Shown here piece after piece: positions 1 through 34,668 of a DNA stretch of 64,000 nt. Position 1 is the stretch's first letter; each line of letters starts with the position of its first letter. The stretch comes from a virus. The position numbers and the translations under genes were made by a program. The notes under the pieces are model-generated. The model made no database searches and was not told where the DNA came from. It saw only the letters and a program-made list of their open reading frames with translations. The stretch covers positions 4,555-68,554 of the IMG/VR virus record IMGVR_UViG_3300045988_154140. One strand, 5' to 3'.

Positions 1-3000
1 GCCTGCACCTCCTCCGCGCTCATCTCTCGCCCGCCTGTCATTGGGTCGGTGAGTTCTGGAGTGGCCAGCACCCAGTCTGGCGCGTCTTCTGTGCCTCTGT
101 TCTCTACCCACATACTGTCTATGACAGCCAGGCCGTTGGTGTTGTGGGCGCTCACAAGGTTGTAGAAGTGTTGCAGAGCCATGTTCTTGTTACCGCTCGC
201 GATGCTTCGGTATGCCACGCTCAGCAGGCCACCCAGCGGGTTGTCAGCCTCGCTCTTTCTGCCCTTTGCTGTCTTGACGGGGTTGCCCAGCTCGCTGCGC
301 TGTCCGTCAAGGTAGTCGTACATCTCTTCTGCGGTCGGGTCAGCCCAGCCGCGCAAGGGTACGAAGAAGTCGTAGCGCCTGAGTTGATCATCCACGTACT
401 TCTTTGTCGTCAGTCCGCTGCTTCTCTGCTTCTCCAGGCTGTACCCGCTCATCGCGCGTATAGCCTCCCAGAGGTCATCAGTGTAGTGTGTGTTTTCGTA
501 GTTCTCTACACGCCTGTAGGCGGCTTCCGTGAAGTCCTCTTTCTCCTCAACGAGTGCCGACAGACCGCTGTAGTCTTCTGTCACGTCTGCCCCGAAGTCA
601 GCGGCTCTTCGTGTCAGCTCTTCCTGCGTCTCCCTCCAAGTCCAGCCGTTCTCCTCTGCATACTCCTTGATGAAGGAAGCGGTGCGGTACCAGTTGTCCA
701 GCTCGTCCTCGTAGAACTCGGCTTCAGTCTTCAACCCGTGTTTGTTTGGATGCTTCTTGATGCTGTCTATCTCTGCCTCTATTTGCTTCACACGAGCCTT
801 GATAGCGGCTTCAGTACCCAGCGTGCTTTCCTCGCCAGCCGCTATGCGCGTCAGTTCGGCAAGCAGTTGTGTGCGTTCCTCCTTCAGCTCTGCGGTGGCC
901 TCGTGTATCTGTTCCGCATAAGACTCATTAGCCTTCTCCTTCATCGCGGCGCGTATGGCCATGTCTCTGTTACGCTCTATGCCGTGTTTGGAGATGAGAT
1001 ACCAGGACAACTCAAGACCCTTGCCTTTCTTGAAGTCTTTGACAGCGCCTATGAGCCTGTACACGGCACGCTGTAGCGGGCGTGCAAACGCACTGTCAAA
1101 AAGCTTCATCTCGTTTGCGTTGCGGCTGCTCAGTTGCAGCATCGCCTTGTATGCGTTCTGCATGTCGCTCACCTTCTCTCCTGTAGCGCGTTCAACGAGC
1201 TTCTGGAACTCGTCAACGCTGGCAAGGTAGTCGAAGTAGCCCTCTTTGGCAAGGAAGGATGCTTTACTCATCACATCGTCCCATGCGCGTTGCATGGTCT
1301 CGCGGCTCCATCCTGCGCCCTCGCTGTCATTGTTCAGCGCACGGCTTATGTCATCCTCACGGAAGAGGTCTTCAGCCGCAGCGGACTCCTTGCCCTCGGT
1401 TTCGTACTGTCCTACTCCAAGTGTCTCCTGCATCTTCAAGTCCTCAGCCGTACCAAGGATGCTGCGGAACGAGCCAGGCTCTTCAAGGTTCTTGTAGCTT
1501 CTCCACAGGATATAGCGCAGTTCATTGTCGGTGAGTACGGGTCCCGCGTAGTCGAAGCCAAGCGTGTGCAGCATATCCAAGAAAGCCTCCTTGATAGCCG
1601 TCCAGAAGGTCGGGTCGGTTGTCTCGTAGTTCATATCCTCTGCAAGGCTCGCAAGATACTCCTCTGTGGCGGTACGCTGGTCGTAGCCCTTCTCCTCCAT
1701 GAGCGCGTCTATCTTCTGCCGTATCTTGTAGTCGCAGCTCTCGTACACGTTATCAAGGAACTGGTCGAAGTGCTCACCGAACAACTGACGCAAGCCGTGG
1801 TGGGCTACCGCCTCATGCAGTATTGTCTTCTCCACATCTGCCATGCTGGTGTGGTTGCCTATAACTACGGTTATCTTGCCAGTAGTCTTGTTGTAGAATC
1901 CTTTTGCCTTCTGTCTCTTGCCCGTGAAGCCCGAACCATCGGCCACTATCTCCACGTTGCTGAGATGCAGCTTCTCTGCCAGCTCCTGCGCGTGTGTGGT
2001 CATACGTTCCCGCATGTTCTCCGCGTATTCTACCTGTTGTCCTGCGCTGTATCGGCTCTTGCCTATCATCTTCGATACGGGGTCATTGGCAAGCGATACC
2101 TCCTCGTCTGTTGCTTGTCCTTCGCCTTCACGCTTGAGCCATTCGCCCCTGTATTCGCTGTTCAGAGCCTCTATGGCCGCATCGTCCATGTAGGCAGCGC
2201 CCTTATAGGCTTGCTGCTTCTCCTCGTCATCCACAACGCGGTAAAGGTCATCCTCAGAAACTTTTTCGTCAGAAACCTTTGGGTTCTCGAAATCTTGTAT
2301 TACCTTTGCCGCAGAAGAAAGTTCTGCGTTATCTGAGGCTTCCGCGATTGGTGCGGAGAGGTGCAGATAATTCAGGGCTTTCTTTTTATCTACAAACCTC
2401 ATATAACCCTTGTTAATCCAAGCGGCAACGCTGTGTCCTTTCTTTCCGAACACGCTGCTCACAATATCAAAGTCGGCCTCTGTTCCTTTCCCTAAGTCTA
2501 TTGCAACGAGGAAATTTCCATTCGCGGTTTTCAATTCCGTTAGCACGGAGCGATTACCTTCTTTCCCTAAGTTGTCAAATACTGCGATAGGATTTGCCAC
2601 GGCCTTTGGCAAGTCATGCAGCTCTTCAATGGAGAAGCCATGTTTTTTCATCTTCTTCGCAACCTTACTGCCATGAAGTCTTATCGGTTTATCAGCGACT
2701 CCCGCCGACAATAATTTTGCGGAGGGGCTTCCCAAATTGAAATTTATTTTGTCGGAATTATCCTCCGTAAATTTTGCGAGTTGTTCATTGAACTTCTCGT
2801 TCACCCTCTCCAGGCTTTCCCCGTCATTCATCATGCGGGGATCCACGCCGTCCAACAAATCCTTCATCACGCGGTCTGCCACTTCCTCGGCTGTGGTGTA
2901 GTGGATATGCAGGAAGTCAGCAACGCTCTTCCAGAACGTATCAAGCGCCTGCCGTATCTTCTGCATCGCGCTCATTGCTTCTGCCTTGTCGAAGATGCTT

Positions 3001-6000
3001 CCGTTCTTGGTAGCCTCCTCCATCTCCTTACGCAAGCGTTCCGCGCCTCTACGGCCTGAGTAGGTAGCCAGCACTTCATCTGCTATCTCGTCATCAGTCT
3101 TCAGCTCGGGGTAATGTTTCTTCACTTCCTCCCATACAGCGGTGTCCTTCATAAGGCCAACCACGTTTGCCCACTCTTTAGCGTTTGACTGTCTCAGAGC
3201 GCTTGCCCACAGGTGCGCATACTCATGCACAGGTGTTTCGCTGTTGGCTATCTTCGGGTCTATGTATATCTTCCCGTCAACGGTAAAGCCGTAAGCCTCA
3301 CCATCGGCGGTGCGGAAGAAGCGTACATGGTCAGTTATCTTAGCATCCTTCTCGTTGAAGATGACGTAGTTCGTATCGCCCTCTTTCGCGCCACCAAAGT
3401 TTCGCCCAGCCTTGTACCTGATGCCGACAAAGCCGAGGGAATACAAAAATTCGCTTGCGGCCTTATCGTCATTGAATGTTGCGTCATCATTAGGCATCCT
3501 AATTGACAAAGCCCTATACAAGTCGTTGCCGTCCAAAAATTTATACCTCTTGTCGAGTTCGGGGTTTATCGGTCTTTTGCCTTGTTGCTCTAATTGCCTA
3601 TTTACTTTGTTCAGCACTCTAGCACCAACCCTGGAATCCCAGTCAAGATAGTTCTTCCCGTTGTCATCGGTGATTTCCACCGTGTAGAGATGTCGGGAGG
3701 GTAAATCGTTCTCTTTTAGTTCACCAAGTTTCTCGTAGTCGTGGATAAAATCGTTATACCCGCTACCCTTTTCCTTGGCTTTATTGTACATCTCAGAATG
3801 GCTGTCAAGAAGTCTTTGTTTTTCCGACTCGAAACTTCTGCCATTATTTAATGCCTCGCGCAGCTTCTGGAGATAATAGTTTCCGAATTTACTTCTGAAA
3901 AGCTTATTATTTGCGTCCTCGGCATACGTTCTACCGATAGCCTTGCTGCTTGTCACATAAGTGCCCCAGCCAAAGGACTGACTCCCCTGACCCTCACCAA
4001 TGTGGCTGTGGTCGAAAGCCTCAAATTCAGCACCAGAACCGTGCCAAACACGATTTTCACGAATGCCCGCAGAACTTTTTTCGCTCTCTTCAAGCAATTT
4101 TTTGCCTTTATCGTAGGACTTTTCAACTCCTTTTAGTAACTTTGCAAGCGGATAGGATGAATCAAGTCTTAATTGGTTCTGGCTACCCACACCATTAGGA
4201 GTGCTTGGCAATTCGTTGTCGAGCACTTCTATTTTTTGTACCTCGTATGAGTGGATGCCATTATCTGTCGCCGCAGATTTTTCCTCGCGCATCAGCGTCA
4301 TCACCCTGCAAGGCACACCGTCAATCACAACAGCACCATAAAACCTGTGCATAAGGGCAATCGGATTTATCCTTGCCCCGCGTTTCCCGTCCTTTCCTTT
4401 GATATAGTCGGGATGCTCTTCCACCTCAACGCTATGGTTTATCACTTCGTCAAGATGTTCTGCCAAAGCCAGATGGGCTCCCTTATTTCCGCTCTTAGCT
4501 TGGTGCTTCGGGCTTAGACAAATCTCTATCGCGTTACCAGAGATTGTATAGTCAAACTCTGTGCCGTTATTGTCGTAATGAAGAACCTTGGCCTTTCCGT
4601 CAGGAGCGTATTTCTCCTTTGCTTTTTGGATAGCCTGCTTCGTGGCCTCAGCTATATTTCCTGTATAGCTATGCCTTGGGATGCCATCGAGCACCTTAAC
4701 TGACATGTCGTTTAAGCCTGGCATTACAATCCCTCGGTTTTCGACAGCCTGTTTCTGTCTTTCTGCAAAACTCTCTGGAGCGTCACCCATTTGGGTTCTT
4801 ACCTTGCCGTTAGCCTCGTCCATCACACGCTGCCCTTCTTCCTCGTTTGTTATGACATCCATGCCATTCTCCCGCATTCTGTCTATCACGGCATCGCGCA
4901 AGATAGCTTCCTCCTTCGTAACAGGAGCAGCATCTTTTCCGCGCTGGTAGCGCTCATCAGCCTTGCGAGAGTTGAAACGCTTTGATGGTGGGATAATATT
5001 GCCCTTGTCATCGCGTGTTACTAAGTCGTTCTGCTTTCTGTTGTTCTTCACATTCTTATACCTGTAGCTCTTGCCGTTGTCGTAGCCCCACTCGTTCACG
5101 TCGTTGCTGTCCCACCAAAGGTCACCAGCTGGCACCTCGTCTTCAATGATACGGTACTTACCCTCCAGACGGTTGTCGCCATGCAACTCAGCATACCTCC
5201 TCGAAGGAGTCACCCAATCACCATTGCGCAACTTGCCCTCCTTTACAGTTGTAGGCACGGCGCGATACACCTTTATCCTCACATCCTTCTTGCCGTTCCG
5301 TATGTCGTCAATGGCTGTCTGTATCGCCTTGCCGCTCTCCTTGCTTGTTGGCAAGCCTTGCGAGTATTTATCAGGATGCTTAAAGATGTCTTCTGGTTGG
5401 TTGCTGTAGCCTGCTGCCATATCCTCCACATTGAGGTCTGGCGAGTCTTCACCAACGGCATTGCGTCTCGCTTCGTCCGTCTCATAATCAGGCTTTGAAG
5501 GTGCGCCCCAAGCACCTACGCCCTGGTAGTCGCTCTCGACATCACCATACCCCTTACGTCTTGCAGCCTCGTCAAGCATCTCACGGGCAGTAGCCTCGTC
5601 ACCTTTCGCCAAGGCATCCGCATAGCGTTCGTCTATCTCGTCTTCTGTGAGTAAAGACAACTCTTCCAAGTGCTGCTGCCTTTTGGCTTCTTCCTCTTCG
5701 GCTTTCTTGCGTGCAGCCTCCATCATGCCACGCTCTATCTCCGCTTGCTTTCTGCGCTCCTCGATAAGCACGTCCACGTCGCCATACTTCGCCTTAATCG
5801 CTTGCTCTACAGGCTCAAACAGACGCTTGTTAGCAAGAAGACCGCTCACTCTATCACGCTCCATCAACGCCTTCTTCTCCGCTATATGCTCACGCAGATA
5901 TATAGCCTTTAGGTCATGAAGAGCCATTGCAGCCGCAGCTGAATTCCTTTCTCTCATACCCTCGGCATATCGGGAAAGCCACATACCATCCAAGCCATAC

Positions 6001-9000
6001 TCCGCTGCAAACTCTGAATATTCGTCTGCTTTCTGGAGACGAGCGTGTGGTTTTTGCCCTGCGGCTTCTTCGGTGCGGATTATCTCCTTAATGATAGCGG
6101 CTTCATTCGGTGCAAGTAGAATTTTGCCTTGTTCGTAGGCATTCCAAGCCCCTATATAGCCGCTATACATTTTTACCGCTAATTCTATCTGTCCCGTTTC
6201 GGCTTTGGTGCTTCCGTATCGTATCTTGCCTATCTTCCATTCGGTAGCGTGGCTATCAGCATGCTTACTCGCTCCCGTCTTATACTTCTCGGGTGCGGGT
6301 GTTGCCTCCCACTTCGTACCTTTGATGACCTCTTCCGTCTTTTGAGGGCGCGTGTCCTTTGCGGCTTTAGCGGCTTTCTTGTATGCGGCTTCCACCGCTT
6401 TATCGGCTTCCTCGTATTCGGCGTTCGCCTTCTCACGCAACTCCTTCAGTACGGGGTCGGCCTTCATTGCCTCACGCTCTTTCTGCCCTTTTTCGGATGT
6501 TGTCTCCGCAGACAAAGTGGCTTGCGTTGGGTAGTGCTCAAAGAGGTAGTCCTGTATCTTCTCCTCCCATTTCTGCTCCACGTCACGCGCATGGTCATTC
6601 GCTTTTATGAAGTCTGGATTGTTCTCTACGAGGTGGCTTTCTATCTCTTCTTTCTGCCCCTTTTCTATAGGCAGTATGGAAGAATTATTAAACACAACAA
6701 CCTCACCTCCATCAATCATATTATGTTCTACAGACCAAGCATTCATATAGTTAATGATGCCATCATATCCCTTACTCTTTAACAAGTTAGAGAACTGAAC
6801 GGCTTCACTCTCGTTAAAGCCTGGATTACCAAGCATGTAGAATGGTTTGGATAGCTTTACATGTGCTTCAAATACCTGTCCATTATAGCCGTATTCTTCT
6901 GCAACGTCCTTGTTTGGAGTAAAGTACACACCACTACCTGCGAAATCCGCACTTTCACCATCGGCGCGTTTGTGTCCTGCTTCAAGTTCTGACACACTGA
7001 TAGATTTATCTAATGTACCATGGTAAAGAGTAATTGGGTTACCTGCATTATCGGCAACGACACCTTCATCTGTCAAGTTTCTATGTTCCTGACTAATAGG
7101 TGTACATCCTCTCTCTCTCAATAGAGTTTGAATTTCCGAAGTGGTATCTTCATCGGCAGGTGCGTTGATTTCCACAACGTCCTTCTTCACTGACGAGTAC
7201 TCACCAAAAGGCTTAGTCTTACGCGTGCTTGACTCAATCCACTTCTCGAAGTCTTCGAGGTTCACAGCGGACACATCAATTCTGCGGCCATTCTCCCAGC
7301 CCTGCTCGTAATTGGCAAGGTAGTCGCTCTTAGCCTCGTCAGCATCATTGAAGCCAAGCATAACCTTGTGCTCGTCAAAACTACCGTCAGGGTTGTACTG
7401 GTCAACGACGAACACCTTGCGTCCGTCCCAACCGTCAATATCATTGGAGAGGAACACGTCAATGTGGTCGCCGTCAACACCCACTGTACCACGAATGTAG
7501 CCGTAAGTGTTGTTCATCTTGCTTTCCCACTGCTTGCCGTCAGCATCAGTGCCCCTACGCACGCTGCCCTGCGGCTGCTCAATGGTGATGTCGAACGTAC
7601 CAACTTGTACATGCCCCTTCTTATAGTTGCCAGCTTCCTTCTGCGCCTCTGTCGGTTCGGTATTCACTTCGGCTGAGGCCGCTTCAATCTGGTTACCAAC
7701 ACTTTTTTCGTCATTTCCTTGCTCAGTTGAAGCCTTCTCTTTACCTTTGCCCTCAGAAGAGGTCGTTGGAGTTTCAGCGTTAATCGTTTCCTCACCGCCT
7801 TGTTGGGGATTCTGAGGCTTTGAAACATCTTCTGCGGTAGAAGATTGTGTCGGTTCGCTCGGCTCGTAGTCTTCTTGATTAGAGTTATTGGTTTGTGGCG
7901 CATCCGTGCCCTCTGTAGCGAGGTCGGACTTATTCCCTTGCGAAGAGTACAAGCCATCTGCCACGTCCGAGGCAGTCGAAACGTCATCGGCGCGTTTCCA
8001 AACCAATTTACCATTAAGAAGGAGGTCCAATATCTTGGACTTCCTTTTTTCTTGATTTGAAATCACGACCTCACGACCATCCTTGCGAACTGTTACAGAT
8101 GTAAAATAATAGTATCGTGAGCCATCAGCCTTGTGGAATGTTTTTACAAATACATAAGAGCTGCCACGTTCGGTAATATCTCCTTCTTTAGCCTCGCTCT
8201 TATCTTCGACTATAAAGTCAGGATTTTCAAGCGTAGGTTTAAGCATACCGAGTTTGCCATTACGTCCTTGCCGCATTAGCTTTGCAAACTGGTTCTCGCC
8301 CATCTTGACATCGCCAACTGGAGTTGGGATCTGCGTACCCTCATCAAATAGGGCATCCCAATTCTCTATTGTCAACTCAATTTGGGGAGCGACTTCTGCT
8401 CGCTCCTCCATCTGAGCAATGAGCGTAATAGCCTCTTCTCTGTTCAGTGTGCCTTCGCCTGCAATTTCTTCTTGGCTGCTTCCACTTCCTGTCGCACTTT
8501 GCGCTCCTCCAGCATTCTCTTGTGCAGCCTCTGGTTTACCAGCGCCTTCATCGCCAGCATCTTCTTCTGCTCTGGTGTCTGCGCGCTCTTCACCTCCTCG
8601 GGTGTCATCAGTCCGTTCGCCAGGTTGTACTTGATGGCTTCCACCATCGCTCTGCTCTTCTCCTGCGGAGTCATTTCCTTCTGTTCCATTGCTCTGCTGT
8701 TTAGCTTGTTCTTCTCTTCTGCGTAAGTCCTCCTCTATCTCGTCTGCGTATAGCTTGGTGAACTCTTGCTCGTCAAAGTTACTATATCTTCTCAACATCT
8801 CGGGCATCTCCTGCTCGGTATATGCGATATAGTCCTCATAAGACATGCCGTAGCGCTCGTTATAGTACGCATCGCGCTGCGCGTTGTACTGCTCCACAAA
8901 CTCCTGCTCTTGGTCAGTCTTATCTCGTCCCGACTTGAGGAAGTCTATAATGGCATCCCTTGCGGCAGCACTGTCACCGCCGAAGAAGCGGCCACCGTTC

Positions 9001-12000
9001 TCAGTGTTGTCAAGGTCAACCAACTTTTCGGACAGGCGTTCTATGCTGTCTCCCTCCTTCGCGATACGTCCTGCCCACTGCTTCTGCTCCAGCGTTCCGC
9101 CTCCAGTCTCTTTTCTGAAGGACTCAGGTGCTATCTTGGCACTTGCCATGAAGTCGGCGATGAACTCCTGCTGTGTGGGTATGCCGTTCTCGGCCTTTCG
9201 CTGTGCTCGGTAGGCCGTGCGTGCGTTATCATCGTTCAGTTCGCCCTCCCAGCCTTGCGCGTCTGCGGGTGTGGTTATTCTCTCCACTTCGGCTTTTACA
9301 TCGTTCCAGTACTGAGCCTTGTGGCGGGCATCTTCCAGCTCGTCTTCCCACTTCTTCTTGCTGGCAAGGTACTTGGCCTTGTCAGTGCCTACCTTGGGCT
9401 TCCGCTTCTCCAGCTTCTTCACGTTCTTGTCGGCTTCCGCTATCTGTGCCTCTATGAACTCGCCCACCTCCTTGTCGTCAAGGGTACCGTCATACAGGTC
9501 TTCCACGGTGGCCTGCACAGGAGCCTTGTCGTACTGGGGTGCTCCGTCCTTATCCAGCGGTATCTTTGGAGTGGCCTTGCTCTCCACAGCGGGAGCGGCC
9601 TCACCCTCCACAACAGGAGCGGCTTCACCCTCCACTACAGCGGAAGACCCGCCAGTTGGCCCCTCCTCGTCTGGTGCGTCCTTGCTATCCACGTAGTCAT
9701 GCAGGAGTTGTTTCGTCTTGGCATCCCACTCAGACTCATCCACGAGGTCTATCCACTCATGGATTGTCTCGGCATCGTTCTCGTCACGCACCCAGCCGTC
9801 AACCATTGCGCGTGCGCTTCTTCCTTCCTCGGTAGCGTCCAACTGCGCGGCCACCTCGCTACGGGTAGGCACTGCTGTATCGGCAGGCGCGTCCTCCTCT
9901 GTAGCGGGAGTGCCCTCTATGACCACAGAAGAACCGTCAGTCGGTGTCTCCTCTGTTGCACCGCCCTCCGTAGTCTCCTCCACCGCGCTGCGCTCTGCAT
10001 CGCGCTGCGCTGCGTCTTCCTGCTCATACACGTAGTCCTGGGAAGACAGAAGCTCGTCAGCGGTGGCCTTGAAGGGTGTGCCGCTTATGGCTTCCTCCTC
10101 GCCTGCCTCGTTCATGCGTGTGGGCAGGAGATAGAAGTTACCCTCCTCATCCTCCTTCACGATGAGGAAGCGCTGTGTCTCGTTATCCTCGTCATCGCTC
10201 TTGCGCATGCTGATGCTGACCGTCTCACCCACGGCGGGCTGCACGGTCTTGTTATGGTGGTTGAGGTTCCAGCGTACTTCATCCTTCGCCTGCTCCCACA
10301 GCTGCTTGCGTCTGGCTTCTGTCTCCTCGCTGGCGTTGACGGCTGTCAGTTCTCCCGCCTCCTCACGCGGTATCATGCGCAGAGCGCCTGTCCCCATATC
10401 ACGCACCACCAGCGTATTGCCTTCGTCAGACAGAGAAGAGGGTACGACATATTCGTTCTCTCCAAGGTTAGAGCCGCGCCATGCGTTGCCCTCCTCGTCC
10501 GACATGAGGTTTAGCGTGTTGCCGTACTTGTCGGCTTCCTCGTCCACGCGGTCATGCGCCCCTGCCATGATACCGCTCAGTCGGACGCTGGACAGATACA
10601 CATCCGTAGCCGCCTTCTTCTGCTCCCAGTTCAGTGTCTTCAGTATCTCCTGGAACTGCGGCAAGTCCATATCCCGCACGGCCATCACGAAGTCCTTGCC
10701 CAGCATTTCGGTAGCGGTTGCCGCTGCATTGTCAAACTCTACAGCGGCATTGTGGCGCTCGTCAACGGCCATCTCATGCCCCGCGTCAAACGCGCTCTTA
10801 TAGCCACGCTGCACACGGTTTGCACTTATCTCCCCAGACATATCGCTTGTGTTTACGCTCTGGTAGGCCACCAGCTTACCAGCGTAGTCCATCAGCGCGC
10901 GCGCCTGCTCGCTGTCCTTCAGCCCGCCATCCTTGAGGACGGACATATACACGTCGCATATATCCTTGATGCTCTCTGCCTCGCGCATGCGGGTCATAAG
11001 AGGTACAGCGGTCTCCTCGCCCAACGACTTGCGCAGGGCATCGGCAGAGGTGTTCAGCTGGCGCTTGACGGTGTAGGAGTTGTAGCGCTTCTGGCCTTGC
11101 TCGATAGCGGCCATGGGCATAATCATCGCGGCCACCGACAAGAATGTCTCCAAGTTTGTCTCGGCGTTGAACATGGAGCCTTTCCAGTCGTTCACGGCTT
11201 TGTTGTAGTCCTCCTCGCTCTTGTAGTCCTCGCGCTTTGGCTCGAAGACACCTCCCGTCAGGTTCATGTCGCCTGTGAAAACCGCGTTCTCCAGGTTGTT
11301 TATCACTTCCTCTGCATACTCCCCGAAGAGGCCGCTTATGTGCGCTTTCTTGCGGAACTCGGCCAGCAGGGAAGCCTTCTGCTTCGGTGAGGATGCAATG
11401 AACCGCTCCACCATGCTGCGTGCCAAGGGCATATCCTTTGCGGCAAGGTTGGCAAAGTTCTTTATCGGGGAGAAGTATTCACCCACCAGCTCGGACTGGT
11501 TCTCGAAGTAGGAAGCCAAGCCCCCCTTGAGGTACGACTTAGCCCCTGTCTCTCTGTCCTCCACGCGGTCATACACTATGCGCCCGCTGTCATCCACACG
11601 GCCTATGAACGTACCCGTCTGCCTCTCGTTTATAGAGGCCATGGTACGCGGCAGGCCAGTGGTGAGTGTTGTACCCAGTGCCTCCACTCCATCACCTATC
11701 ACGCGCCCTGCGGTGTTCATCGCGCGCACGCCCCACTTGCCATATTTGTTCACGGCGGCTACGGTGAGGGCGCGCTGCATGCTCTGCTCGGCGGCGGTCA
11801 TGGTAGGCGCGCCAGTCACGTTCTTCATCACCGTCTTACCCGCTGTCTTCATCGCGCCCTTCAGCACTTCCTTCACGCCTCCCTTGGCAGCGTTAGCCGC
11901 TACTTGCTTCTCCACAGCCGCACCCAGTCCGTTGAGCGGGTTGATGTAGATGCTAGCGGCAAAGCCCGCAGAGGCAGGCACGCTCTGTCCTACGCGGTAG

Positions 12001-13298
12001 GACATCGGCACGTGCTCACTGAAGTTAGCGTCCAGCGTGCTTGATACCGCCATCGCGTCCAGCACTCTCTGCTCGGTTGCGGTCAGATGCTCCTCGGGTG
12101 TCTTGCCTGCCTCCTCGGCCTTGCGGATTCGCTCTGACTTATCTACAAGCTCAGCCAGGTTACGGCTGTCTGCCCAGTCGTTGGCACCGAAGTCCCACGT
12201 GCGTATATCGCGGGTAGCGTCCCACGCGCCACGTGCCACGTTGAAGGCTGTGTTGTTGGAAAAGCCTTCGCGTGTAGCCTGCTTGATGGTGTTTTCTGTG
12301 TCCTCCAGTGCCTGCTCTGCGGCCTTGGCCTTGCCATACTCGGGGTCTGTCCACCTACGTATGTAAGAGGTCACGTTGGGGAACTGGCTCTCAGCGAACT
12401 CCATAAAGCCCGACTTCTCGCCTCGTCTCTCCTCTATGTCCTTCAACGCGTTGGCCACCTCCTCCTTTGCAGCCTCGAGTTGTTCTCTGCCGCCTCCCAG
12501 CTCGTACTCGGCCTTCACATCGCGCCCGCGGTACTTCTTTTCTGCTGCGTCCCGCTGCTGCTGTAGGCGGTCTATGGCCTGCATGATATAGCCTTTGCGT
12601 GTCTCACTCGTCTGGTCGGTACCCTTAATGCGGTCATACTGCTCCCGCATGACGGTCAGCTGCTTGTCTATGCCTGCCAACTCCTCCTGCCGCTTGCGGT
12701 CTATCTCCTCTTGCGCGCGAGCCAGCTTACGCGCTTGCTCCTGCTGATTGTCCAGAGCGGCCTGCTCACGCTCGGCAGAAGCCTGCGAGGTGTACTCGTT
12801 GCCGCTCTGTGTTATGTAGGTTCGCTCCTGCTTGCCTGTCTTGGCATTGAACGTAGGAGCGGTGGCCACGGTACGACCCGACTTGCCAAGTCCAAGCTCT
12901 ACCTTCGGCACGTTAAGCCCGAAGTTGGCCTTCTGCCACTCCTGCGCGTTCTCTGCCTGGTGCAGCACATCGCGCCCGCGTGCTACCGCCAGAGCGTTGT
13001 TCTTAGCCGCTCTTGCGTAGTCATCCGCGTTGGGCTGTGCCGCTCCACCCTGCTCTTCGGCTGGATCCTCCTGCTTGGCTGGCTTCACGGCATGCAAGCC
13101 AAGGTTGGCAGCAAACTCCTCGTAGGTATTGCTCTCTACGGCGTTGTCCTGCTTCAGCGCAGTAAAGAGCGCGAGCCTGTTCTTGTAGCCTTCCTCACCA
13201 GGCGCAAGCATCTTAGCTCGGAAATTCTCTCTACCGCTTGTTACCGCGCCATCACGTTCCAGCGCATCGTATAGTATATCTAACTTATCTTGTGCCAT
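1..13298 (-). CDS. Giant multidomain polyvalent-type protein; N-terminus complete, C-terminus outside the window (at least 4432 codons)
   Basis: ATG at 13298-13296, 2 nt after the upstream stop. My spot translations at 13298, 7475, 7028, 4046, 3227, 1817 and 23 all fall in the same frame (coordinate mod 3 = 2). It is missing from the ORF track only because its stop lies off-window. The plus-strand ORFs here look like antisense shadows. Confidence 0.85.
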   Translation of the reverse strand, partial: MAQDKLDILYDALERDGAVTSGRENFRAKMLAPGEEGYKNRLALFTALKQDNAVESNTYEEFAANLGLHAVKPAKQEDPAEEQGGAAQPNADDYARAAKNNALAVARGRDVLHQAENAQEWQKANFGLNVPKVELGLGKSGRTVATAPTFNAKTGKQERTYITQSGNEYTSQASAEREQAALDNQQEQARKLARAQEEIDRKRQEELAGIDKQLTVMREQYDRIKGTDQTSETRKGYIMQAIDRLQQQRDAAEKKYRGRDVKAEYELGGGREQLEAAKEEVANALKDIEERRGEKSGFMEFAESQFPNVTSYIRRWTDPEYGKAKAAEQALEDTENTIKQATREGFSNNTAFNVARGAWDATRDIRTWDFGANDWADSRNLAELVDKSERIRKAEEAGKTPEEHLTATEQRVLDAMAVSSTLDANFSEHVPMSYRVGQSVPASAGFAASIYINPLNGLGAAVEKQVAANAAKGGVKEVLKGAMKTAGKTVMKNVTGAPTMTAAEQSMQRALTVAAVNKYGKWGVRAMNTAGRVIGDGVEALGTTLTTGLPRTMASINERQTGTFIGRVDDSGRIVYDRVEDRETGAKSYLKGGLASYFENQSELVGEYFSPIKNFANLAAKDMPLARSMVERFIASSPKQKASLLAEFRKKAHISGLFGEYAEEVINNLENAVFTGDMNLTGGVFEPKREDYKSEEDYNKAVNDWKGSMFNAETNLETFLSVAAMIMPMAAIEQGQKRYNSYTVKRQLNTSADALRKSLGEETAVPLMTRMREAESIKDICDVYMSVLKDGGLKDSEQARALMDYAGKLVAYQSVNTSDMSGEISANRVQRGYKSAFDAGHEMAVDERHNAAVEFDNAAATATEMLGKDFVMAVRDMDLPQFQEILKTLNWEQKKAATDVYLSSVRLSGIMAGAHDRVDEEADKYGNTLNLMSDEEGNAWRGSNLGENEYVVPSSLSDEGNTLVVRDMGTGALRMIPREEAGELTAVNASEETEARRKQLWEQAKDEVRWNLNHHNKTVQPAVGETVSISMRKSDDEDNETQRFLIVKEDEEGNFYLLPTRMNEAGEEEAISGTPFKATADELLSSQDYVYEQEDAAQRDAERSAVEETTEGGATEETPTDGSSVVIEGTPATEEDAPADTAVPTRSEVAAQLDATEEGRSARAMVDGWVRDENDAETIHEWIDLVDESEWDAKTKQLLHDYVDSKDAPDEEGPTGGSSAVVEGEAAPVVEGEAAPAVESKATPKIPLDKDGAPQYDKAPVQATVEDLYDGTLDDKEVGEFIEAQIAEADKNVKKLEKRKPKVGTDKAKYLASKKKWEDELEDARHKAQYWNDVKAEVERITTPADAQGWEGELNDDNARTAYRAQRKAENGIPTQQEFIADFMASAKIAPESFRKETGGGTLEQKQWAGRIAKEGDSIERLSEKLVDLDNTENGGRFFGGDSAAARDAIIDFLKSGRDKTDQEQEFVEQYNAQRDAYYNERYGMSYEDYIAYTEQEMPEMLRRYSNFDEQEFTKLYADEIEEDLRRREEQAKQQSNGTEGNDSAGEEQSDGGSHQVQPGERTDDTRGGEERADTRAEEDAGDEGAGKPEAAQENAGGAQSATGSGSSQEEIAGEGTLNREEAITLIAQMEERAEVAPQIELTIENWDALFDEGTQIPTPVGDVKMGENQFAKLMRQGRNGKLGMLKPTLENPDFIVEDKSEAKEGDITERGSSYVFVKTFHKADGSRYYYFTSVTVRKDGREVVISNQEKRKSKILDLLLNGKLVWKRADDVSTASDVADGLYSSQGNKSDLATEGTDAPQTNNSNQEDYEPSEPTQSSTAEDVSKPQNPQQGGEETINAETPTTSSEGKGKEKASTEQGNDEKSVGNQIEAASAEVNTEPTEAQKEAGNYKKGHVQVGTFDITIEQPQGSVRRGTDADGKQWESKMNNTYGYIRGTVGVDGDHIDVFLSNDIDGWDGRKVFVVDQYNPDGSFDEHKVMLGFNDADEAKSDYLANYEQGWENGRRIDVSAVNLEDFEKWIESSTRKTKPFGEYSSVKKDVVEINAPADEDTTSEIQTLLRERGCTPISQEHRNLTDEGVVADNAGNPITLYHGTLDKSISVSELEAGHKRADGESADFAGSGVYFTPNKDVAEEYGYNGQVFEAHVKLSKPFYMLGNPGFNESEAVQFSNLLKSKGYDGIINYMNAWSVEHNMIDGGEVVVFNNSSILPIEKGQKEEIESHLVENNPDFIKANDHARDVEQKWEEKIQDYLFEHYPTQATLSAETTSEKGQKEREAMKADPVLKELREKANAEYEEADKAVEAAYKKAAKAAKDTRPQKTEEVIKGTKWEATPAPEKYKTGASKHADSHATEWKIGKIRYGSTKAETGQIELAVKMYSGYIGAWNAYEQGKILLAPNEAAIIKEIIRTEEAAGQKPHARLQKADEYSEFAAEYGLDGMWLSRYAEGMRERNSAAAAMALHDLKAIYLREHIAEKKALMERDRVSGLLANKRLFEPVEQAIKAKYGDVDVLIEERRKQAEIERGMMEAARKKAEEEEAKRQQHLEELSLLTEDEIDERYADALAKGDEATAREMLDEAARRKGYGDVESDYQGVGAWGAPSKPDYETDEARRNAVGEDSPDLNVEDMAAGYSNQPEDIFKHPDKYSQGLPTSKESGKAIQTAIDDIRNGKKDVRIKVYRAVPTTVKEGKLRNGDWVTPSRRYAELHGDNRLEGKYRIIEDEVPAGDLWWDSNDVNEWGYDNGKSYRYKNVKNNRKQNDLVTRDDKGNIIPPSKRFNSRKADERYQRGKDAAPVTKEEAILRDAVIDRMRENGMDVITNEEEGQRVMDEANGKVRTQMGDAPESFAERQKQAVENRGIVMPGLNDMSVKVLDGIPRHSYTGNIAEATKQAIQKAKEKYAPDGKAKVLHYDNNGTEFDYTISGNAIEICLSPKHQAKSGNKGAHLALAEHLDEVINHSVEVEEHPDYIKGKDGKRGARINPIALMHRFYGAVVIDGVPCRVMTLMREEKSAATDNGIHSYEVQKIEVLDNELPSTPNGVGSQNQLRLDSSYPLAKLLKGVEKSYDKGKKLLEESEKSSAGIRENRVWHGSGAEFEAFDHSHIGEGQGSQSFGWGTYVTSSKAIGRTYAEDANNKLFRSKFGNYYLQKLREALNNGRSFESEKQRLLDSHSEMYNKAKEKGSGYNDFIHDYEKLGELKENDLPSRHLYTVEITDDNGKNYLDWDSRVGARVLNKVNRQLEQQGKRPINPELDKRYKFLDGNDLYRALSIRMPNDDATFNDDKAASEFLYSLGFVGIRYKAGRNFGGAKEGDTNYVIFNEKDAKITDHVRFFRTADGEAYGFTVDGKIYIDPKIANSETPVHEYAHLWASALRQSNAKEWANVVGLMKDTAVWEEVKKHYPELKTDDEIADEVLATYSGRRGAERLRKEMEEATKNGSIFDKAEAMSAMQKIRQALDTFWKSVADFLHIHYTTAEEVADRVMKDLLDGVDPRMMNDGESLERVNEKFNEQLAKFTEDNSDKINFNLGSPSAKLLSAGVADKPIRLHGSKVAKKMKKHGFSIEELHDLPKAVANPIAVFDNLGKEGNRSVLTELKTANGNFLVAIDLGKGTEADFDIVSSVFGKKGHSVAAWINKGYMRFVDKKKALNYLHLSAPIAEASDNAELSSAAKVIQDFENPKVSDEKVSEDDLYRVVDDEEKQQAYKGAAYMDDAAIEALNSEYRGEWLKREGEGQATDEEVSLANDPVSKMIGKSRYSAGQQVEYAENMRERMTTHAQELAEKLHLSNVEIVADGSGFTGKRQKAKGFYNKTTGKITVVIGNHTSMADVEKTILHEAVAHHGLRQLFGEHFDQFLDNVYESCDYKIRQKIDALMEEKGYDQRTATEEYLASLAEDMNYETTDPTFWTAIKEAFLDMLHTLGFDYAGPVLTDNELRYILWRSYKNLEEPGSFRSILGTAEDLKMQETLGVGQYETEGKESAAAEDLFREDDISRALNNDSEGAGWSRETMQRAWDDVMSKASFLAKEGYFDYLASVDEFQKLVERATGEKVSDMQNAYKAMLQLSSRNANEMKLFDSAFARPLQRAVYRLIGAVKDFKKGKGLELSWYLISKHGIERNRDMAIRAAMKEKANESYAEQIHEATAELKEERTQLLAELTRIAAGEESTLGTEAAIKARVKQIEAEIDSIKKHPNKHGLKTEAEFYEDELDNWYRTASFIKEYAEENGWTWRETQEELTRRAADFGADVTEDYSGLSALVEEKEDFTEAAYRRVENYENTHYTDDLWEAIRAMSGYSLEKQRSSGLTTKKYVDDQLRRYDFFVPLRGWADPTAEEMYDYLDGQRSELGNPVKTAKGRKSEADNPLGGLLSVAYRSIASGNKNMALQHFYNLVSAHNTNGLAVIDSMWVENRGTEDAPDWVLATPELTDPMTGGREMSAEEVQ
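9592..9639 (-). repeat. Tandem 24-bp in-frame repeat x2 inside the giant ORF (VVEGEAAP / AVEGEAAP)
   Basis: 9592-9615 and 9616-9639 are 22/24 identical; they lie in an acidic linker. Confidence 0.8.
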
Positions 13299-13300: not shown

Positions 13301-14449
13301 TTATAAACCAAGTGCTCTTGTATGTGACATATTATTGTTCGGCTTCTTCCCTGTCTTGGCCTTCTTCTTGGCCTCTTCTGCGGCTTTGCGTTCCTCCTTC
13401 TTCTTCCGCGTAAGTTCTGCAAGCTTCTGCTCTCCCGATTTACCGCGCTCTATCTTGGTAGTGCTCTTGCCGCCGAACTCGTTAACGTGTTCGGTCTCTC
13501 TTGTGCGGCTATCGTCCCCCATCTCAAGCCCCATTTGGTGTATCGCCTCATTCGGGGTGATATACAATCTCTCTAATTCGCCAGTAAGGGAATTGGCGAC
13601 GTCGTAAGGAACCCTGTATGCCCCACTACCACCGCTGCCAACGTGTCTTGCGCGTTGGTTATTCAGCCCTATCTGCGAGTCCATGAGCTGAAGCTTCTTC
13701 TGAGCAAGCGCCACGATGTTATCTGCTTCCTGCTCCAGCTTCTTTCTTGTGGCTTCGTCCTTTGCGGAAGCGGCCTGCATCGTCTTAATCTTGGCATCGG
13801 TAAGCATGTCTTGTATCTCCCAACGCTTATCCTCGGCGTTTACCTTACGCACCAAGTCCGCTCTCTTCAGACCAAGCTCCTCTCCCTTCTGCTGGAGCGC
13901 ACGGCCTTGCAGCAGGTTGTTAAGGTAAGCCTGCCTGCTCTTCTCCACCTGTGTGCGGAATGCCTGCACGTCCTTGTTAGCGTCTGGCAGGTCGGGTAGC
14001 TTCTGGCTTGGAGCCACACCGCCTGTAAAGGCAAGGTTGCTGAACGCGCTGAGCACGTTGCCCAGCGCGCCCACGCTCTGAGCGGCAGCAGCCCCGCGCT
14101 CTCTGCGCTTCTGCTCCTCCTCGGTCATCGGTGCAGAGGTGTACTGCTTGACCAACTCGGAGAAGTTGTCGTAGTCACTGACTGGCGGTATATCCAGGGA
14201 TGGCTTTTCCTCCTCCACAACGGGCGCTTCCGCTCTCTGCTCTTTCGGTGTCCACGGGGTCTGCGGTGTATAGTCTGCCGTTTTTCTCTGCAAGGCAGCT
14301 GGCACCTCATCCTTCACGGCAGGAGCATGGGCGGTCACAGCAGGGGCAGGAGTCGGGGTAGTAGCTACCGCTGGCTTAGGTGGGTAAGTCACACTCTTCT
14401 TCTCGTCATCGTCGAGAAAAGAATACATGTCTGATTCTGTTCTCTTCAT
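13301..14449 (-). CDS. Hypothetical 382-aa protein, Pro/Ala-rich N-part and charged coiled-coil-like C-part
   Basis: ORF track; ATG at 14449; its stop is 2 nt before the giant-ORF ATG. Confidence 0.65.
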   Translation of the reverse strand: MKRTESDMYSFLDDDEKKSVTYPPKPAVATTPTPAPAVTAHAPAVKDEVPAALQRKTADYTPQTPWTPKEQRAEAPVVEEEKPSLDIPPVSDYDNFSELVKQYTSAPMTEEEQKRRERGAAAAQSVGALGNVLSAFSNLAFTGGVAPSQKLPDLPDANKDVQAFRTQVEKSRQAYLNNLLQGRALQQKGEELGLKRADLVRKVNAEDKRWEIQDMLTDAKIKTMQAASAKDEATRKKLEQEADNIVALAQKKLQLMDSQIGLNNQRARHVGSGGSGAYRVPYDVANSLTGELERLYITPNEAIHQMGLEMGDDSRTRETEHVNEFGGKSTTKIERGKSGEQKLAELTRKKKEERKAAEEAKKKAKTGKKPNNNMSHTRALGL

Positions 14450-14451: not shown

Positions 14452-15063
14452 CTACTTCTTCTTAAACAGCCCCTCAAAGAGACCTTTACCGTTATTAAGT
14501 TTAGCCTGCATGTCTGCGCCCACTACGCCCATGCCTGCCTGCATGCCCGCAGAGGCGGCTGTCTGTGCGTTCTGTGCGGCCTGTGCGTAGTACTGCATAT
14601 TACGCGCTGCGTTGGCGCTTATATTTTGTTGGTTCTGCTTATCCACAGCGTCCTTGTAGGCTCCTGCCTGCGAGGCTATCTGTGCTGTAGCGTCAGCAAG
14701 CCCCGCATTAGCGGACTCCTGTGCCGCCATCACGCTCTCGTCTGTACCGCCAGACACGGCTTGCCTGGCGCGGGCGCTGTTAATCTGCCTCTCTGCGGCC
14801 TCACGTGAGCTGTTGAGGAGGCGCTGCACATCAGCGCGCTGTGTGTAGTCCTCGTTCATGCGCTGGTTGTACCAGTCGTTCTGCTTCTTGTTTAGGTCGG
14901 CCATCTCCTTCCTGTACTTCTTCTCGGCTTTGTGGGCTTTAATGCCTCCATAGATGCTTGAACCTATCGAGGTGGCCGCGCCTAATATTGCTCCTATCAT
15001 TGCAACGATTATTAAAAAGTTATGCCCACAAAGATAATCTCCGCGGGCATTCTCTCTTGACAA
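14452..15063 (-). CDS. Hypothetical membrane-anchored Q/A-rich protein (203 aa from TTG 15063; 182 aa if ATG 15000 is used)
   Basis: ORF track; N-terminal hydrophobic stretch FLIIVAMIGAILGAATSIGSSIYGG; 2-nt spacing to the next gene. Confidence 0.6.
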   Translation of the reverse strand: MSRENARGDYLCGHNFLIIVAMIGAILGAATSIGSSIYGGIKAHKAEKKYRKEMADLNKKQNDWYNQRMNEDYTQRADVQRLLNSSREAAERQINSARARQAVSGGTDESVMAAQESANAGLADATAQIASQAGAYKDAVDKQNQQNISANAARNMQYYAQAAQNAQTAASAGMQAGMGVVGADMQAKLNNGKGLFEGLFKKK

Positions 15064-15071: not shown

Positions 15072-16433
15072 CTACCTGTACGTCTGTACCAAGCGCTTGA
15101 GTGCGCCCATGAGCGCGTTCTGCTCGTTGGCCTTGCTCTGTATGGCCTGCCAGGCTCTCTCATCCACAGTGTCGGAACACAGCAGATGATAGACTTGCAC
15201 GGGGTACTTCTGACCTTGCCTGTGCAGTCTCGCGCAGGCCTGCTGGTACAACTCAAGGTTGAACCCCACACCGAACCACACGATGACGTGTCCTCCTGCC
15301 TGCATGTTAAGGCCGTAGGCGCATGAGGCGGGATGGGCAAGCAGCACCTCCACCTCTCCCTTGTTCCATGCGCGCAAGTCCTGCTCGTTCTCGTAGGCTC
15401 TCAGCTTGTAGTCCTTGCCGAGCGCGTCCTTGATACGTGCAAGGTCGTGCTTGTACTGGTAGAAGACGAGCACAGGAGACCCTGCGGCCTCTACTATCTC
15501 TCTGAGGGCTTCTATCTTCTCCTGATGTATCTCCTCCACCATGTGTTCGTCTGTATAGACAGCGCCGTTGGCATACTGAAGCAGCTTACCCATGAGGGCT
15601 GCGGCACTCGCGGCAGTGATAGCCTCTGTGTCGCTTATGCTCATCACCATCTCACGCTCGAACTTGCGGTAGCGGCTCAGTATGCTGGCGGGCAGATGCA
15701 CTCTCTTCACGATGTCCTGCCTCTCTGGCAGTGTCAGATAGTCTCCTGCCTGCATGGTGAGGCAGATGTCGGACAGCAGCGCGTCTATCTGTTCCTTGGA
15801 TCCTTCCTTCAGCGTTGCCCTAAGCAGATAGCCCTGCGGACTTGTTGTCACGTTGAAGTAATTGCTCCTGTAGCGTGTCACGAACTTGCCAAGGCGCTGG
15901 CCTCCGTCTATGCAGAACACCTCTGCCCAGAGGTCAAGGTAGCCGTTAGGGGCTGGCGTGCCTGTAAGCCCTATGATATGGCTGAACTGGCTACGCACAA
16001 GCCGCATCGCCTTGAAGCGCTGGCTTGTGTTGCTCTTGAAGCTTGTCAACTCGTCTATGATGAGCATGTCAAACGGCATGCTGGCGTTGTAGTACTTGAC
16101 CAGCCACACCCAGGAGTCGCGGCCAAGCACGTAGAGGTCGGCATCCTGCTCCAGAGCCTTTATGCGCTGCTTCTCTGTGCCTATGACGCGGCTCACGCGC
16201 AGACCCGACAGATGCTCCCATTTCTCTACCTCGTCTGACCATGTGGATTCTGCCACCTTACGTGGGGCGATGACAAGCGCCTTGCTGACCTCCATGTCTG
16301 CAAGCATCCTGCCCAAGGCAGTAAGCGTTATAAGGCTCTTGCCCAAGCCCATCTCAAGCAGAAGCGCGCAGCGCGGCGTGTCTTCCACAAACCGAACCGC
16401 GCGCTTCTGGTAATCATGCAGGACTGCTTTCAT
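15072..16433 (-). CDS. SNF2-family helicase
   Basis: Motifs GLGKSL (I), IIDELTSFK (II), LTGTPAPNG (III), QQACARLHRQGQ (VI). Confidence 0.9.
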   Translation of the reverse strand: MKAVLHDYQKRAVRFVEDTPRCALLLEMGLGKSLITLTALGRMLADMEVSKALVIAPRKVAESTWSDEVEKWEHLSGLRVSRVIGTEKQRIKALEQDADLYVLGRDSWVWLVKYYNASMPFDMLIIDELTSFKSNTSQRFKAMRLVRSQFSHIIGLTGTPAPNGYLDLWAEVFCIDGGQRLGKFVTRYRSNYFNVTTSPQGYLLRATLKEGSKEQIDALLSDICLTMQAGDYLTLPERQDIVKRVHLPASILSRYRKFEREMVMSISDTEAITAASAAALMGKLLQYANGAVYTDEHMVEEIHQEKIEALREIVEAAGSPVLVFYQYKHDLARIKDALGKDYKLRAYENEQDLRAWNKGEVEVLLAHPASCAYGLNMQAGGHVIVWFGVGFNLELYQQACARLHRQGQKYPVQVYHLLCSDTVDERAWQAIQSKANEQNALMGALKRLVQTYR

Positions 16434-23494: not shown

Positions 23495-23896
23495 TTAATT
23501 TTCTCTTTCTTTCTCACTCTTGATAATCTCAAGCCGCATCTCAAGGATTCTGACGTATGCGCGCAGCATATCATGCTGTAATCTCCACAGGTTCTCCTCA
23601 TTCGGCTTTGGAACTGGCTCGTCGAAAAGCATCCACGACTGGATACGGCGCTGGACTTCTGTAATCTCTACGCGCAGTCTGTCTTCCGAACTATTGAATT
23701 GCGTGTAGCAGCGGTTGAACGTGTCTTCATCCACCCAATACTCAAGAACTCTCCCGTTTGGGACAGGCTGTGTTATCTTGTAGCCAGCTTTGAGTACATG
23801 CCCGTCTTCTGACTTGGGATGTATGCCTGCCGCAATAGCCTCGTACTCCGTCATAGGATGTGCCCATACCTCTCTTGGGCCGATATACTTATTCAT
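23495..23896 (-). CDS. Hypothetical 133-aa protein sharing the N-terminal domain of the DUF2829 protein
   Basis: I chose ATG 23896 (MNKYIGPREVWAHPM..) over the TTG at 23929 because the leader motif lies at 23906-23917. Confidence 0.6.
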   Translation of the reverse strand: MNKYIGPREVWAHPMTEYEAIAAGIHPKSEDGHVLKAGYKITQPVPNGRVLEYWVDEDTFNRCYTQFNSSEDRLRVEITEVQRRIQSWMLFDEPVPKPNEENLWRLQHDMLRAYVRILEMRLEIIKSEKEREN

Positions 23897-23937
23897 ATCT
23901 TTGGTTTGTTTAGTTGTCACTCCGTCCAATTCGCGTC

Positions 23938-34180: not shown

Positions 34181-34258
34181 TATATTTTTTTCTTATCTTT
34201 TACTATCTTTTATCGTCTTTTCTTATCTTTTATCAACTTTTACTATCTTCTGTATCTC
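34181..34258 (-). repeat. Array A: about seven 10-bp-phased TATCTTTT-type repeats (AAAAGATA on the sense strand of the early operon)
   Basis: TATCTTTT occurs at 34194, 34204 and 34224, with variants at 34214, 34234, 34244 and 34253. Confidence 0.8.
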
Positions 34259-34603: not shown

Positions 34604-34668
34604 ATCTTTTTCCTATCTTTTATTAACTTTTATCCGTTTTTATCATGTTTTACCATCTTTTTCCTTAA
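34601..34668 (-). repeat. Array B: six to seven 10-bp-phased TATCTTTT-type repeats abutting the small-ORF ATG
   Basis: catatctttt tcctatcttt tattaacttt tatccgtttt tatcatgttt taccatcttt. Confidence 0.8.

Follow-up and report, generated by a model that had tools for sequence, protein, structure and literature searches.

What is encoded by a reading frame that opens with an ATG and then runs for 4432 codons without a stop? The frame lies in a 64,000-nt stretch of viral DNA, positions 4,555–68,554 of the IMG/VR record IMGVR_UViG_3300045988_154140 (hereafter the window), which holds most of the genome of a temperate phage. It starts at position 13298 on the minus strand, reads down to position 3 and runs off the left edge of the window (1–13298, aa 1–4432 of the protein); all features of this gene and of its partner genes given below lie on the same strand. 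A first-pass annotation had read it as a polyvalent protein, mostly unannotated, encoded at the distal end of an early operon, and had put it forward as an undescribed system. Sequence comparisons support its assignment to the phage-type polyvalent proteins, in a family that we describe by its domain order as LPD14…InPase…LPD38.

An intact and constrained giant gene

Several lines of evidence confirm that the frame is a real gene under constraint. First, random codons would leave such a frame open with a probability of (61/64)^4432, or about 1e-92, which rules out chance as its source.

Second, the ATG at 13298 sits 2 nt past the TAA of the preceding 382-aa open reading frame (ORF), and close and distant relatives begin at the same residue, P0121 and P0271 starting with MAQDK and other members sharing an M..D..LY motif.

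Third, the frame is open in several assemblies. Bases 1–60 of the window have exact matches in two IMG/VR contigs, both near-identical to the window, and in both the frame extends for 710 further codons before it reaches a stop, behind which lies a perfect 13-bp hairpin. The complete protein, encoded by a gene of 15 kb, is thus ~5142 aa long, its final 710 aa lying past the window edge, and the true C-terminus, which the first-pass annotation had proposed to find by contig extension, has been reached. Contig 118237, an independent assembly, carries an open allele of 4699 aa, P0121 is a complete allele of 4317 aa, and the product called at the same position in a Logan contig measures 5221 aa.

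Fourth, comparison of the window with contig 118237 gives dN/dS values of 0.12 over aa 468–1598, 0.07 over aa 3203–3504 and 0.14 over aa 3704–4432, indicating purifying selection on the frame. With the frame open to the window edge, open in other assemblies and constrained throughout these segments, the claim of a single uninterrupted ORF of at least 4432 codons holds.

The extreme length of the frame and its mosaic GC content are the sole prompts for regarding it as an accident, whether of a chimeric assembly or of a decaying pseudogene, and we found nothing else in favour of that explanation. It is already effectively refuted, and we give it next to no credence: at least four independent assemblies are open across 4300–5200 codons, the differences between alleles are all in frame, the same architecture recurs in hundreds of homologues, and dN/dS stays at 0.07–0.14. 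At the level of DNA, megablast of the giant gene against phage and plasmid collections gave no matches, and neither did an exact-DNA search of IMG/VR for its 5′ end.

Conserved ends and a variable middle

The family to which the protein belongs was delineated by an exhaustive phmmer/HMMER search of representatives with aa 1–1200 as the query, which returned 227 clusters; a word-indexed search of the N-terminal module reached only 3 proteins, and the wider family needed the exhaustive search. From the best 150 of the 227 cluster matches we drew 59 giant relatives of 3193–6399 aa and recorded module sharing by BLASTP of the full protein against them. Two regions are widely shared: an N module at aa ~300–1000 (10299–12401), mostly alpha-helical and common to 55–59 of the 59 giants, and a C module at aa ~3750–5000 (aa ~3750–4432 in the window, 3–2051), common to 47–54. 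The region of the type-I inorganic pyrophosphatase-like domain (InPase) is common to 40 of the 59, and aa ~2050–3700 are common to only 1–22.

The order of these parts is fixed. The N module precedes the C module in all 54 giants that have both; the N module starts at or before residue 446 and the C module stops no more than 280 aa short of the C-terminus, with a spacing between them of 1052–4644 aa. In a Pfam census of 13 relatives, LPD14 was present in all 13, LPD38 in 10 and InPase in 9, and the domains that change from one scanned relative to the next were LPD3, PBECR5, MuF_C, ART, LPD23, ddrB-ParB, LPD13, a kinase and an SprT-like domain. The family is therefore built of a conserved N module, a variable middle and a conserved C module, in proteins of 3200–6400 aa. 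AlphaFold2 (AF2) models of both modules are nearly all helical, with very long helices (pLDDT 76.4 for the N module and 78.9 for the C module). Foldseek searches of these models against the PDB gave no match at E < 0.001, and a BFVD search returned only fragments of homologous giants from ‘Podoviridae sp.’ contigs; some 2000 conserved residues of the two modules are without a related solved structure.

Ahead of the N module, the first ~90 aa (13029–13298) form a domain with two ~35-aa LYxxLxxxGY...F..F-like repeats. The same domain stands at the extreme N-termini of many proteins of 77–6000 aa in the representative search, their residues 1–90 aligning with residues 1–90 of the giant, and may act in targeting or as an adaptor.

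The middle of the protein differs even between near-identical phages. Four alleles are available, those of the window (W, 5142 aa) and contig 118237 (A, 4699 aa), a further allele B, and P0121 (4317 aa), and the phages that bear them are 96–97% identical in shared flanking DNA. The four differ mid-protein by whole, in-frame, domain-sized blocks. Contig 118237 is without aa 2062–2212, which hold the first of two ADP-ribosyltransferase domains (ART-PolyVal #1), and without aa 2829–3063, which hold LPD3. In P0121 the stretch PBECR2–InPase–ART #1–LPD3 is exchanged for LPD13, giving the order LPD14–LPD13–ART–MuF_C–LPD38. The mosaic zone (aa ~1600–3700) has a GC content of 0.485–0.50, compared with 0.54–0.59 in the conserved ends, and no internal DNA repeats were found that could account for the domain indels or their breakpoints. 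To judge from these alleles, near-identical phages swap middle domains as whole-domain cassettes.

The class assignment comes from a Pfam scan of tiles of the giant protein (E ≤ 0.01 overall, and E ≤ 1 for tiles otherwise unassigned), in which families defined in the paper on polyvalent proteins (Iyer et al., J Bacteriol 2017) match along the protein, as the first-pass annotation had anticipated. Within the N module lies LPD14 (aa 639–680, 11259–11384; 43 bits, above the cut-off). The middle begins with PBECR2, a predicted RNase domain (aa 1659–1768, 7995–8324; 49.8 bits, above the cut-off), and InPase (aa 1884–2022, 7233–7649; 183.7 bits), followed by ART-PolyVal #1 (aa 2083–2181, 6756–7052; 39.4 bits, above the cut-off). 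Further along are a PHROGs match to phrog_2579, ‘ParB C-terminal domain’, without a Pfam match (aa 2614–2744, 5067–5459), a predicted LPD3 slightly below its cut-off (aa 2892–3007, 4278–4625; 25 bits), and a predicted ART-PolyVal #2 with 28.5 bits against a cut-off of 31.2 (aa 3083–3186, 3741–4052), which by eye may carry Asn where the catalytic Glu would stand. MuF_C, a PBECR-family domain with an RNase fold (PMC5512222), follows at aa 3547–3641 (2376–2660; 66 bits, above the cut-off). Past the window edge, in the 710-aa extension, a single hydrophobic segment (aa 4742–4775) adjoins LPD38 (aa ~4786–4966; 72.8 bits, above the cut-off).

The acidic or low-complexity linkers noticed at first reading can be placed at aa 1104–1242 (9573–9989), at aa 1509–1617 (8448–8774), where the allelic mosaic zone begins, and at aa 2518–2591. 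The protein has only 6 cysteines in its 5142 aa.

Its description as mostly unannotated is accurate in Pfam terms, with ~1000–1400 of 5142 aa assigned and ~70% of residues outside any Pfam family; Pfam at E ≤ 1 together with NCBIfam added nothing credible in the unassigned parts. A PDB sequence search matched InPase alone, in the portal of phage Pa193 (PDB 9b41, an InPase–portal fusion).

Two candidate metallopeptidase sites can be recognized. The sole HEXXH motif, HEYAH, lies at aa 3358–3362 (3213–3227) and is without a Pfam match. The second motif, HEAVAH, of the form HEXXXH (aa 3828–3833, 1800–1817), lies in a domain that we call C1 (aa 3741–~3965, 1404–2078), where it is at least 90% conserved across 57 sequences, with E139 and E140 invariant. 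The AF2 model of C1 has a helix at 12–36, strands at 42–45, 60–63 and 68–72, the motif helix at 79–94 and a Glu helix at 134–148. The HEXXXH clade described in polyvalent proteins consists of an N-terminal helix, a three-stranded sheet, a HEXXXH helix and a helix with a conserved Glu (PMC5512222). No Pfam model matches C1, and by motif and predicted topology it fits a putative metallopeptidase of this clade. Of zincins, which the first-pass annotation named for the class, the protein has one HEXXH and one HEXXXH motif rather than two classical zincin motifs. C1 also ends proteins of ~1150 aa with the composition ART-PolyVal, LPD3 and C1 (P0112/P0117), for example in Prevotella pallens ATCC 700821; such short C1 proteins are widespread in P. 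pallens genomes (118 contigs for one cluster), indicating that modules circulate as short polyvalent proteins too.

At least two unrelated activities are thus predicted from the sequence of one ORF (ART-PolyVal, InPase, PBECR2, MuF_C and the HEXXH and HEXXXH motifs), and the tiles match enzymatic families (InPase, PBECR2, ART-PolyVal) rather than structural families only. The methylase and helicase that the first-pass annotation listed for the class are both missing from this polypeptide: no family of either kind was found in any tile at these thresholds, and a C5-methylase and an SNF2 helicase are encoded by separate upstream genes. PBECR2, InPase and LPD38 are exclusive to phage-type polyvalent proteins (PMC5512222), and the element that carries this one is a phage, with portal, TerL, PolA, VapE, exonuclease, integrase and repressor genes.

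A three-gene cassette and its proposed role

The giant gene is the last of three. Cassette gene 1 (14452–15000) encodes a protein of 182 aa whose N-terminus holds a Gly-rich hydrophobic helix, a homologue of gp70 of Bacteroides phage BF1-TP2 (5.5e-26). Cassette gene 2 (13301–14449) encodes a 382-aa protein, Pro/Ala-rich and then coiled-coil, and is translationally coupled to the giant gene. The order of small protein, ~380–440-aa protein and giant ORF recurs in all 17 IMG/VR loci, from two lineages, that have the small protein, as well as in BF1-TP2 (gp70–gp69–gp68) and in one Logan contig.

Signals at both ends of the cassette bear on the claim that it closes an early operon. The 72-nt gap between the SNF2 gene and the cassette holds a terminator-like hairpin with a T-run (15022–15050), and overlapping it is a perfect TAnnTTTG motif of the Bacteroidetes −7 type (TATCTTTG, 15029–15036), 29 nt 5′ of the ATG at 15000. 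TAnnTTTG, often as TATCTTTG, also stands 20–30 nt 5′ of the portal gene and of four other virion-region genes, and in the lysis–lysogeny switch region (motif scan, minus strand: 43704–43711, 49703–49710, 51560–51567, 55254–55261, 60272–60279 and 34710–34717). The total in the window, 31 sites compared with 23.7 ± 4.8 in shuffles, is not a significant excess; it is the suggestive placement of the motif ahead of gene starts, not its count, that carries weight. At the other end, the contig of a relative shows how the genome closes: the giant gene converges on TerL over ~2.8 kb missing from the window, which gives a genome of ~68.6 kb, of which the giant gene makes up ~22%. Parted from the replication genes by the hairpin and the motif, the cassette seems to form its own transcription unit, and its position at the distal end of an early operon is not established.

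What, then, would such a cassette do? We think it probable, with moderate confidence, that it encodes virion-internal proteins, in which the N and C modules of the giant serve incorporation and ejection or envelope crossing and the variable middle is effector cargo. In outline, a small membrane-anchored protein, a ~380-aa coiled-coil protein and the giant would be made as a set, and the giant would enter the capsid and then be ejected into a Bacteroidales host ahead of or alongside the DNA. The invariant functions, virion incorporation and ejection or envelope crossing, would be provided by the N module (aa ~300–1000) and the C module (aa ~3750–5000), the latter supplying the hydrophobic segment and LPD38. 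The middle (aa ~1600–3700), with its PBECR RNase-like domains, InPase, two ADP-ribosyltransferases, LPD3 and ParB-C-like domain, would be the effector cargo, which the two metallopeptidase-like sites may release by cleavage and which close relatives would trade as whole-domain cassettes. In this account packaging, ejection, proteolytic processing and the activities and targets of the domains are all inferred.

The one line of evidence that points to packaging is homology to gp47 of the Stx phage phi24B. This protein (LPD5, LPD1, LPD38, MuF-C) is abundant in virions by mass spectrometry and invisible in the cryo-EM map, and its authors propose it as an encapsidated ejection protein (bioRxiv 10.64898/2026.04.10.717836). 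Residues 4262–4953 of our protein align with residues 2021–2666 of the phi24B giant (E = 1.2e-25), and the MuF_C region is colinear. Phage polyvalent proteins have been argued, in general, to be packaged and then injected (PMC5512222), and a protein whose sole confident annotation is LPD38, PTXU04_00025, was required for efficient infection in a CRISPRi-ART study. In phage Pa193, moreover, InPase is joined to a virion protein, the portal.

Several observations weigh against a packaged carrier. Identity to the phi24B protein is ~24% over ~700 aa and confined to the C-terminal part. Profile comparison by hhalign of cassette gene 2 with BF1-TP2 gp69 reached a probability of 56% over 27 columns, and with 933W L0133 it gave no match. 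The promoter and terminator calls at the cassette are consensus matches only, PHROGs gave no tail-type assignment to the remaining virion-region ORFs, and two of the cargo domains, LPD3 and ART-PolyVal #2, fall below their Pfam cut-offs. The Pfam tiles revealed none of the domains known to target proteins to capsids, such as a MuF/SPP1-gp7 head-association domain or DarA, and the genes that adjoin the giant gene on one side, in the same orientation, are replication rather than virion genes.

These last two points would be expected if the giant were never packaged and acted inside the cell as a polyprotein; its gene would be transcribed together with the replication genes or shortly after them, and the product would be cut by its own metallopeptidase sites into anti-defence or takeover enzymes. 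The gene indeed shares its strand with contiguous SNF2, PAPS-reductase, C5-methylase, VapE and PolA genes and, in the same strand block, a Tad2-like anti-defence gene, and it has two metallopeptidase-like motifs. We nevertheless regard this account as unlikely. In phi24B the relative with LPD38 is part of the virion, the homologue in Stx phages closes the late operon, the BF1-TP2 cassette is not beside replication genes, and a promoter-like motif and hairpin intervene between cassette and SNF2 gene; moreover, an unpackaged polyprotein does not explain why N and C modules that total ~2000 aa are conserved in strict positions.

Conversely, the giant could be mainly a structural ejection or conduit protein, an analogue of T7 gp16 or of a tape measure, in which the enzyme-like domains would be accessories, in part inactive, that do not act on the host. 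The modelled all-alpha folds of the N and C modules, with their long helices, would suit such a protein, as would the single hydrophobic segment beside LPD38, a three-gene layout with a small membrane protein that resembles the ejection sets of T7 and P22, and the sub-threshold scores of ART #2 and LPD3; no tape-measure or other ejection-protein candidate was recognized elsewhere in the window. We consider it a distinctly improbable account, because InPase (184 bits), PBECR2 and ART #1 are full-length matches above threshold, the middle region is under purifying selection (dN/dS 0.07), and rapid whole-domain swapping fits arms-race cargo better than a ruler. Foldseek and BFVD comparisons of the N and C modules with internal virion, ejection and tape-measure proteins were not significant (E > 0.02, and E > 0.03 for the BFVD matches to internal virion proteins), a result that speaks against a structural conduit and also against packaging and ejection of an effector carrier.

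Within the packaged-carrier reading, a more specific proposal can be made, although only tentatively, in which the cassette serves temperate phages of Bacteroidales, and at a greater distance Stx-like and GP4-like phages, as an ejection apparatus in its own right. An envelope-crossing device would then be formed by the N and C modules, the small membrane protein and the coiled-coil partner, and the modules (~700 and ~1250 aa) would represent new folds with new functions. The middle would act as a magazine of readily swapped enzymes aimed at the host, organized like a polymorphic toxin and delivered from the capsid.

That ~22% of the genome is spent on a single gene suggests that its function is central to infection by these phages, whose lineage is common in Prevotella and Bacteroides gut communities. 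With ends and partner genes that stay the same and a middle that is exchanged, this gene narrows the question of how polyvalent proteins are packaged and delivered, and of which parts are cargo and which machinery. The cultured relative BF1-TP2, together with natural alleles that differ by single domains, makes a defined experimental system, and the allelic domain swaps offer a ready catalogue of candidate Bacteroidales anti-defence effectors.

The surrounding phage and known systems

The annotation of the phage as temperate and of Bacteroidota type is well founded. The region at 34.8–38.1 kb encodes an HTH repressor together with a tyrosine integrase that has Bacteroidota-type domains (Arm-DNA-bind_5, Phage_int_SAM_5), and the portal, a capsid-like protein and TerL have homologues in BF1-TP2. 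A search of 185,000 species genomes for the C module found relatives nearly all in Bacteroidales, the closest in Prevotella/Segatella at 56–58% identity; several lie within megabase-sized chromosomal contigs and are, by that placement, prophages. No type IV secretion system (T4SS) or relaxase genes were seen in the window, and tRNA and Rfam scans of it were both empty.

The lysogeny module has a low GC content (0.43). Arrays of 10/20-nt repeats of the ATCTTTTAYC type (34188–34249 and 34606–34661) flank a divergent switch between minus-strand small genes and the HTH repressor, and a related array (36691–36745) lies directly upstream of the integrase gene; in appearance these arrays resemble operators or arm sites.

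The minus-strand block contains genes for an exonuclease, an Enc34-type single-stranded-DNA-binding protein (SSB), PolA, VapE, a Tad2-like protein, a C5-methylase, a PAPS-reductase-like protein and an SNF2 helicase. Directly upstream of the cassette on the minus strand are the SNF2 helicase (15072–16433), the PAPS-reductase-family protein (17490–18722), which may indicate DNA modification, and the C5 cytosine methylase (18716–19669). DarB-type polyvalent proteins contain a methylase–helicase pair, to which the helicase and methylase encoded here correspond in unfused form.

Further upstream, ORFs 20265–21071 and 21071–22039 have weak hexapeptide-repeat (left-handed beta-helix) matches, and the former contains a perfect 54-bp tandem duplication (20728–20834). 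A 235-aa ORF (24957–25664, minus strand) has a C-terminal Tad2-like domain (Thoeris anti-defence 2, PF11195; E = 1.3e-18), and a minus-strand ORF at 23495–23929 has weak similarity to the same BF1-TP2 DUF2829 gene; by their sequence, both are candidate anti-Thoeris sponges within the replication block.

Directly downstream of the portal, a minus-strand ORF of 1229 aa (38086–41775; phrog_32516, function unassigned; no Pfam match) is a homologue of BF1-TP2 gp33 and probably a second large uncharacterized, virion-associated protein. Lying antisense to TerL and overlapping its 3′ end, a 151-aa ORF (63532–63987, minus strand) is probably not a gene; its composition in the relative is odd and rich in Cys.

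The gap between the giant gene and TerL, which on the circular map falls between window positions 64000 and 1, could be read from IMGVR_UViG_3300045988_145510 (7420–10180). It has one 174-aa ORF and ~2 kb without a credible ORF or Rfam match, dense in direct repeats: a 55-nt unit in five copies (core TGTACGCGGAAGGYTCGTTTT in six), four of the ATACGCGCC type, three G-rich 40-mers and three copies of TGTAACGGCTAT. This repeat-rich stretch could serve as an iteron/origin region or as a pac region.

How does the giant protein compare with known systems? The class to which it belongs was already described in 2017, and it is not the undescribed system that the first-pass annotation had proposed. Like the polyvalent proteins of Iyer et al., it combines the signature domains LPD14, PBECR2, InPase, ART-PolyVal, LPD3, MuF_C, LPD38 and HEXXH/HEXXXH motifs, fuses unrelated enzyme activities and comes from a phage with portal–terminase packaging. 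Whereas polyvalent proteins follow no fixed organizational theme (Iyer et al., J Bacteriol 2017; PMC5512222), this sub-family keeps a strict order of N module, middle and C module. With ~5142 aa the protein lies towards the upper end of the sizes observed, and relatives of up to 6399 aa exist. Unlike phage versions placed among late or virion genes, its gene borders replication genes on one side and converges on TerL, across the ~2.8-kb gap, on the other.

Among characterized proteins, phi24B gp47 (vb_24B_48, 2807 aa) and 933W L0134 (2806 aa) have a colinear C-terminal half, MuF_C followed by the LPD38 module. In these temperate phages, too, the giant gene is the last of a same-strand block, after genes for ~400-aa and small proteins. 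The Stx giant differs in carrying LPD5 and LPD1, in being about half as large and in being encoded at the end of a late morphogenesis operon, and no similarity to the N module was detected in it. The closest relative in a cultured phage is BF1-TP2 gp68 (PQ571263.1, 3633 aa, ‘hypothetical protein’), which is 37% identical in the C module and 63% in InPase. BF1-TP2 is likewise a temperate Bacteroidales phage with the same three-gene cassette and homologous TerL, portal and capsid genes, but gp68 is 1500 aa shorter with another middle, and its cassette adjoins the lysogeny module, not replication genes. Our literature searches found no publication on BF1-TP2 and no paper on this giant family in Bacteroidales phages.

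Four familiar labels were tried and set aside. P1 DarB and the ‘DarB-like antirestriction’ proteins (phrog_10089) are large capsid-carried proteins that guard incoming DNA, and the PHROG profile matches the giant protein; the match is limited to the InPase region, and the defining methylase–helicase pair is absent from the polypeptide. A MuF/SPP1 gp7 fusion does not fit, as the protein has only the mid-protein MuF_C (PBECR) and no Phage_Mu_F match, nor does a tape measure, with no such families in Pfam or PHROGs, tiles that match enzymes and the wrong gene context.

The fourth label comes from the podoviruses, in which T7 gp14/gp15/gp16 and P22 gp7/gp20/gp16 form ejection sets and the N4 virion RNA polymerase is a giant ejected protein. 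By analogy with the T7 and P22 sets, the cassette has three successive genes of rising size, the first with a membrane helix, and a proposed role in envelope crossing; the likeness is one of layout only, with no sequence or significant structural similarity, and the giant protein has neither the lytic transglycosylase nor the RNA polymerase domain of the podovirus and N4 proteins. What is novel here is therefore not a class but a set of modest additions to one: a strict bookend architecture, allelism by domain cassettes between near-identical phages, the lack of a related solved structure for ~2000 conserved residues, and a conserved three-gene cassette.

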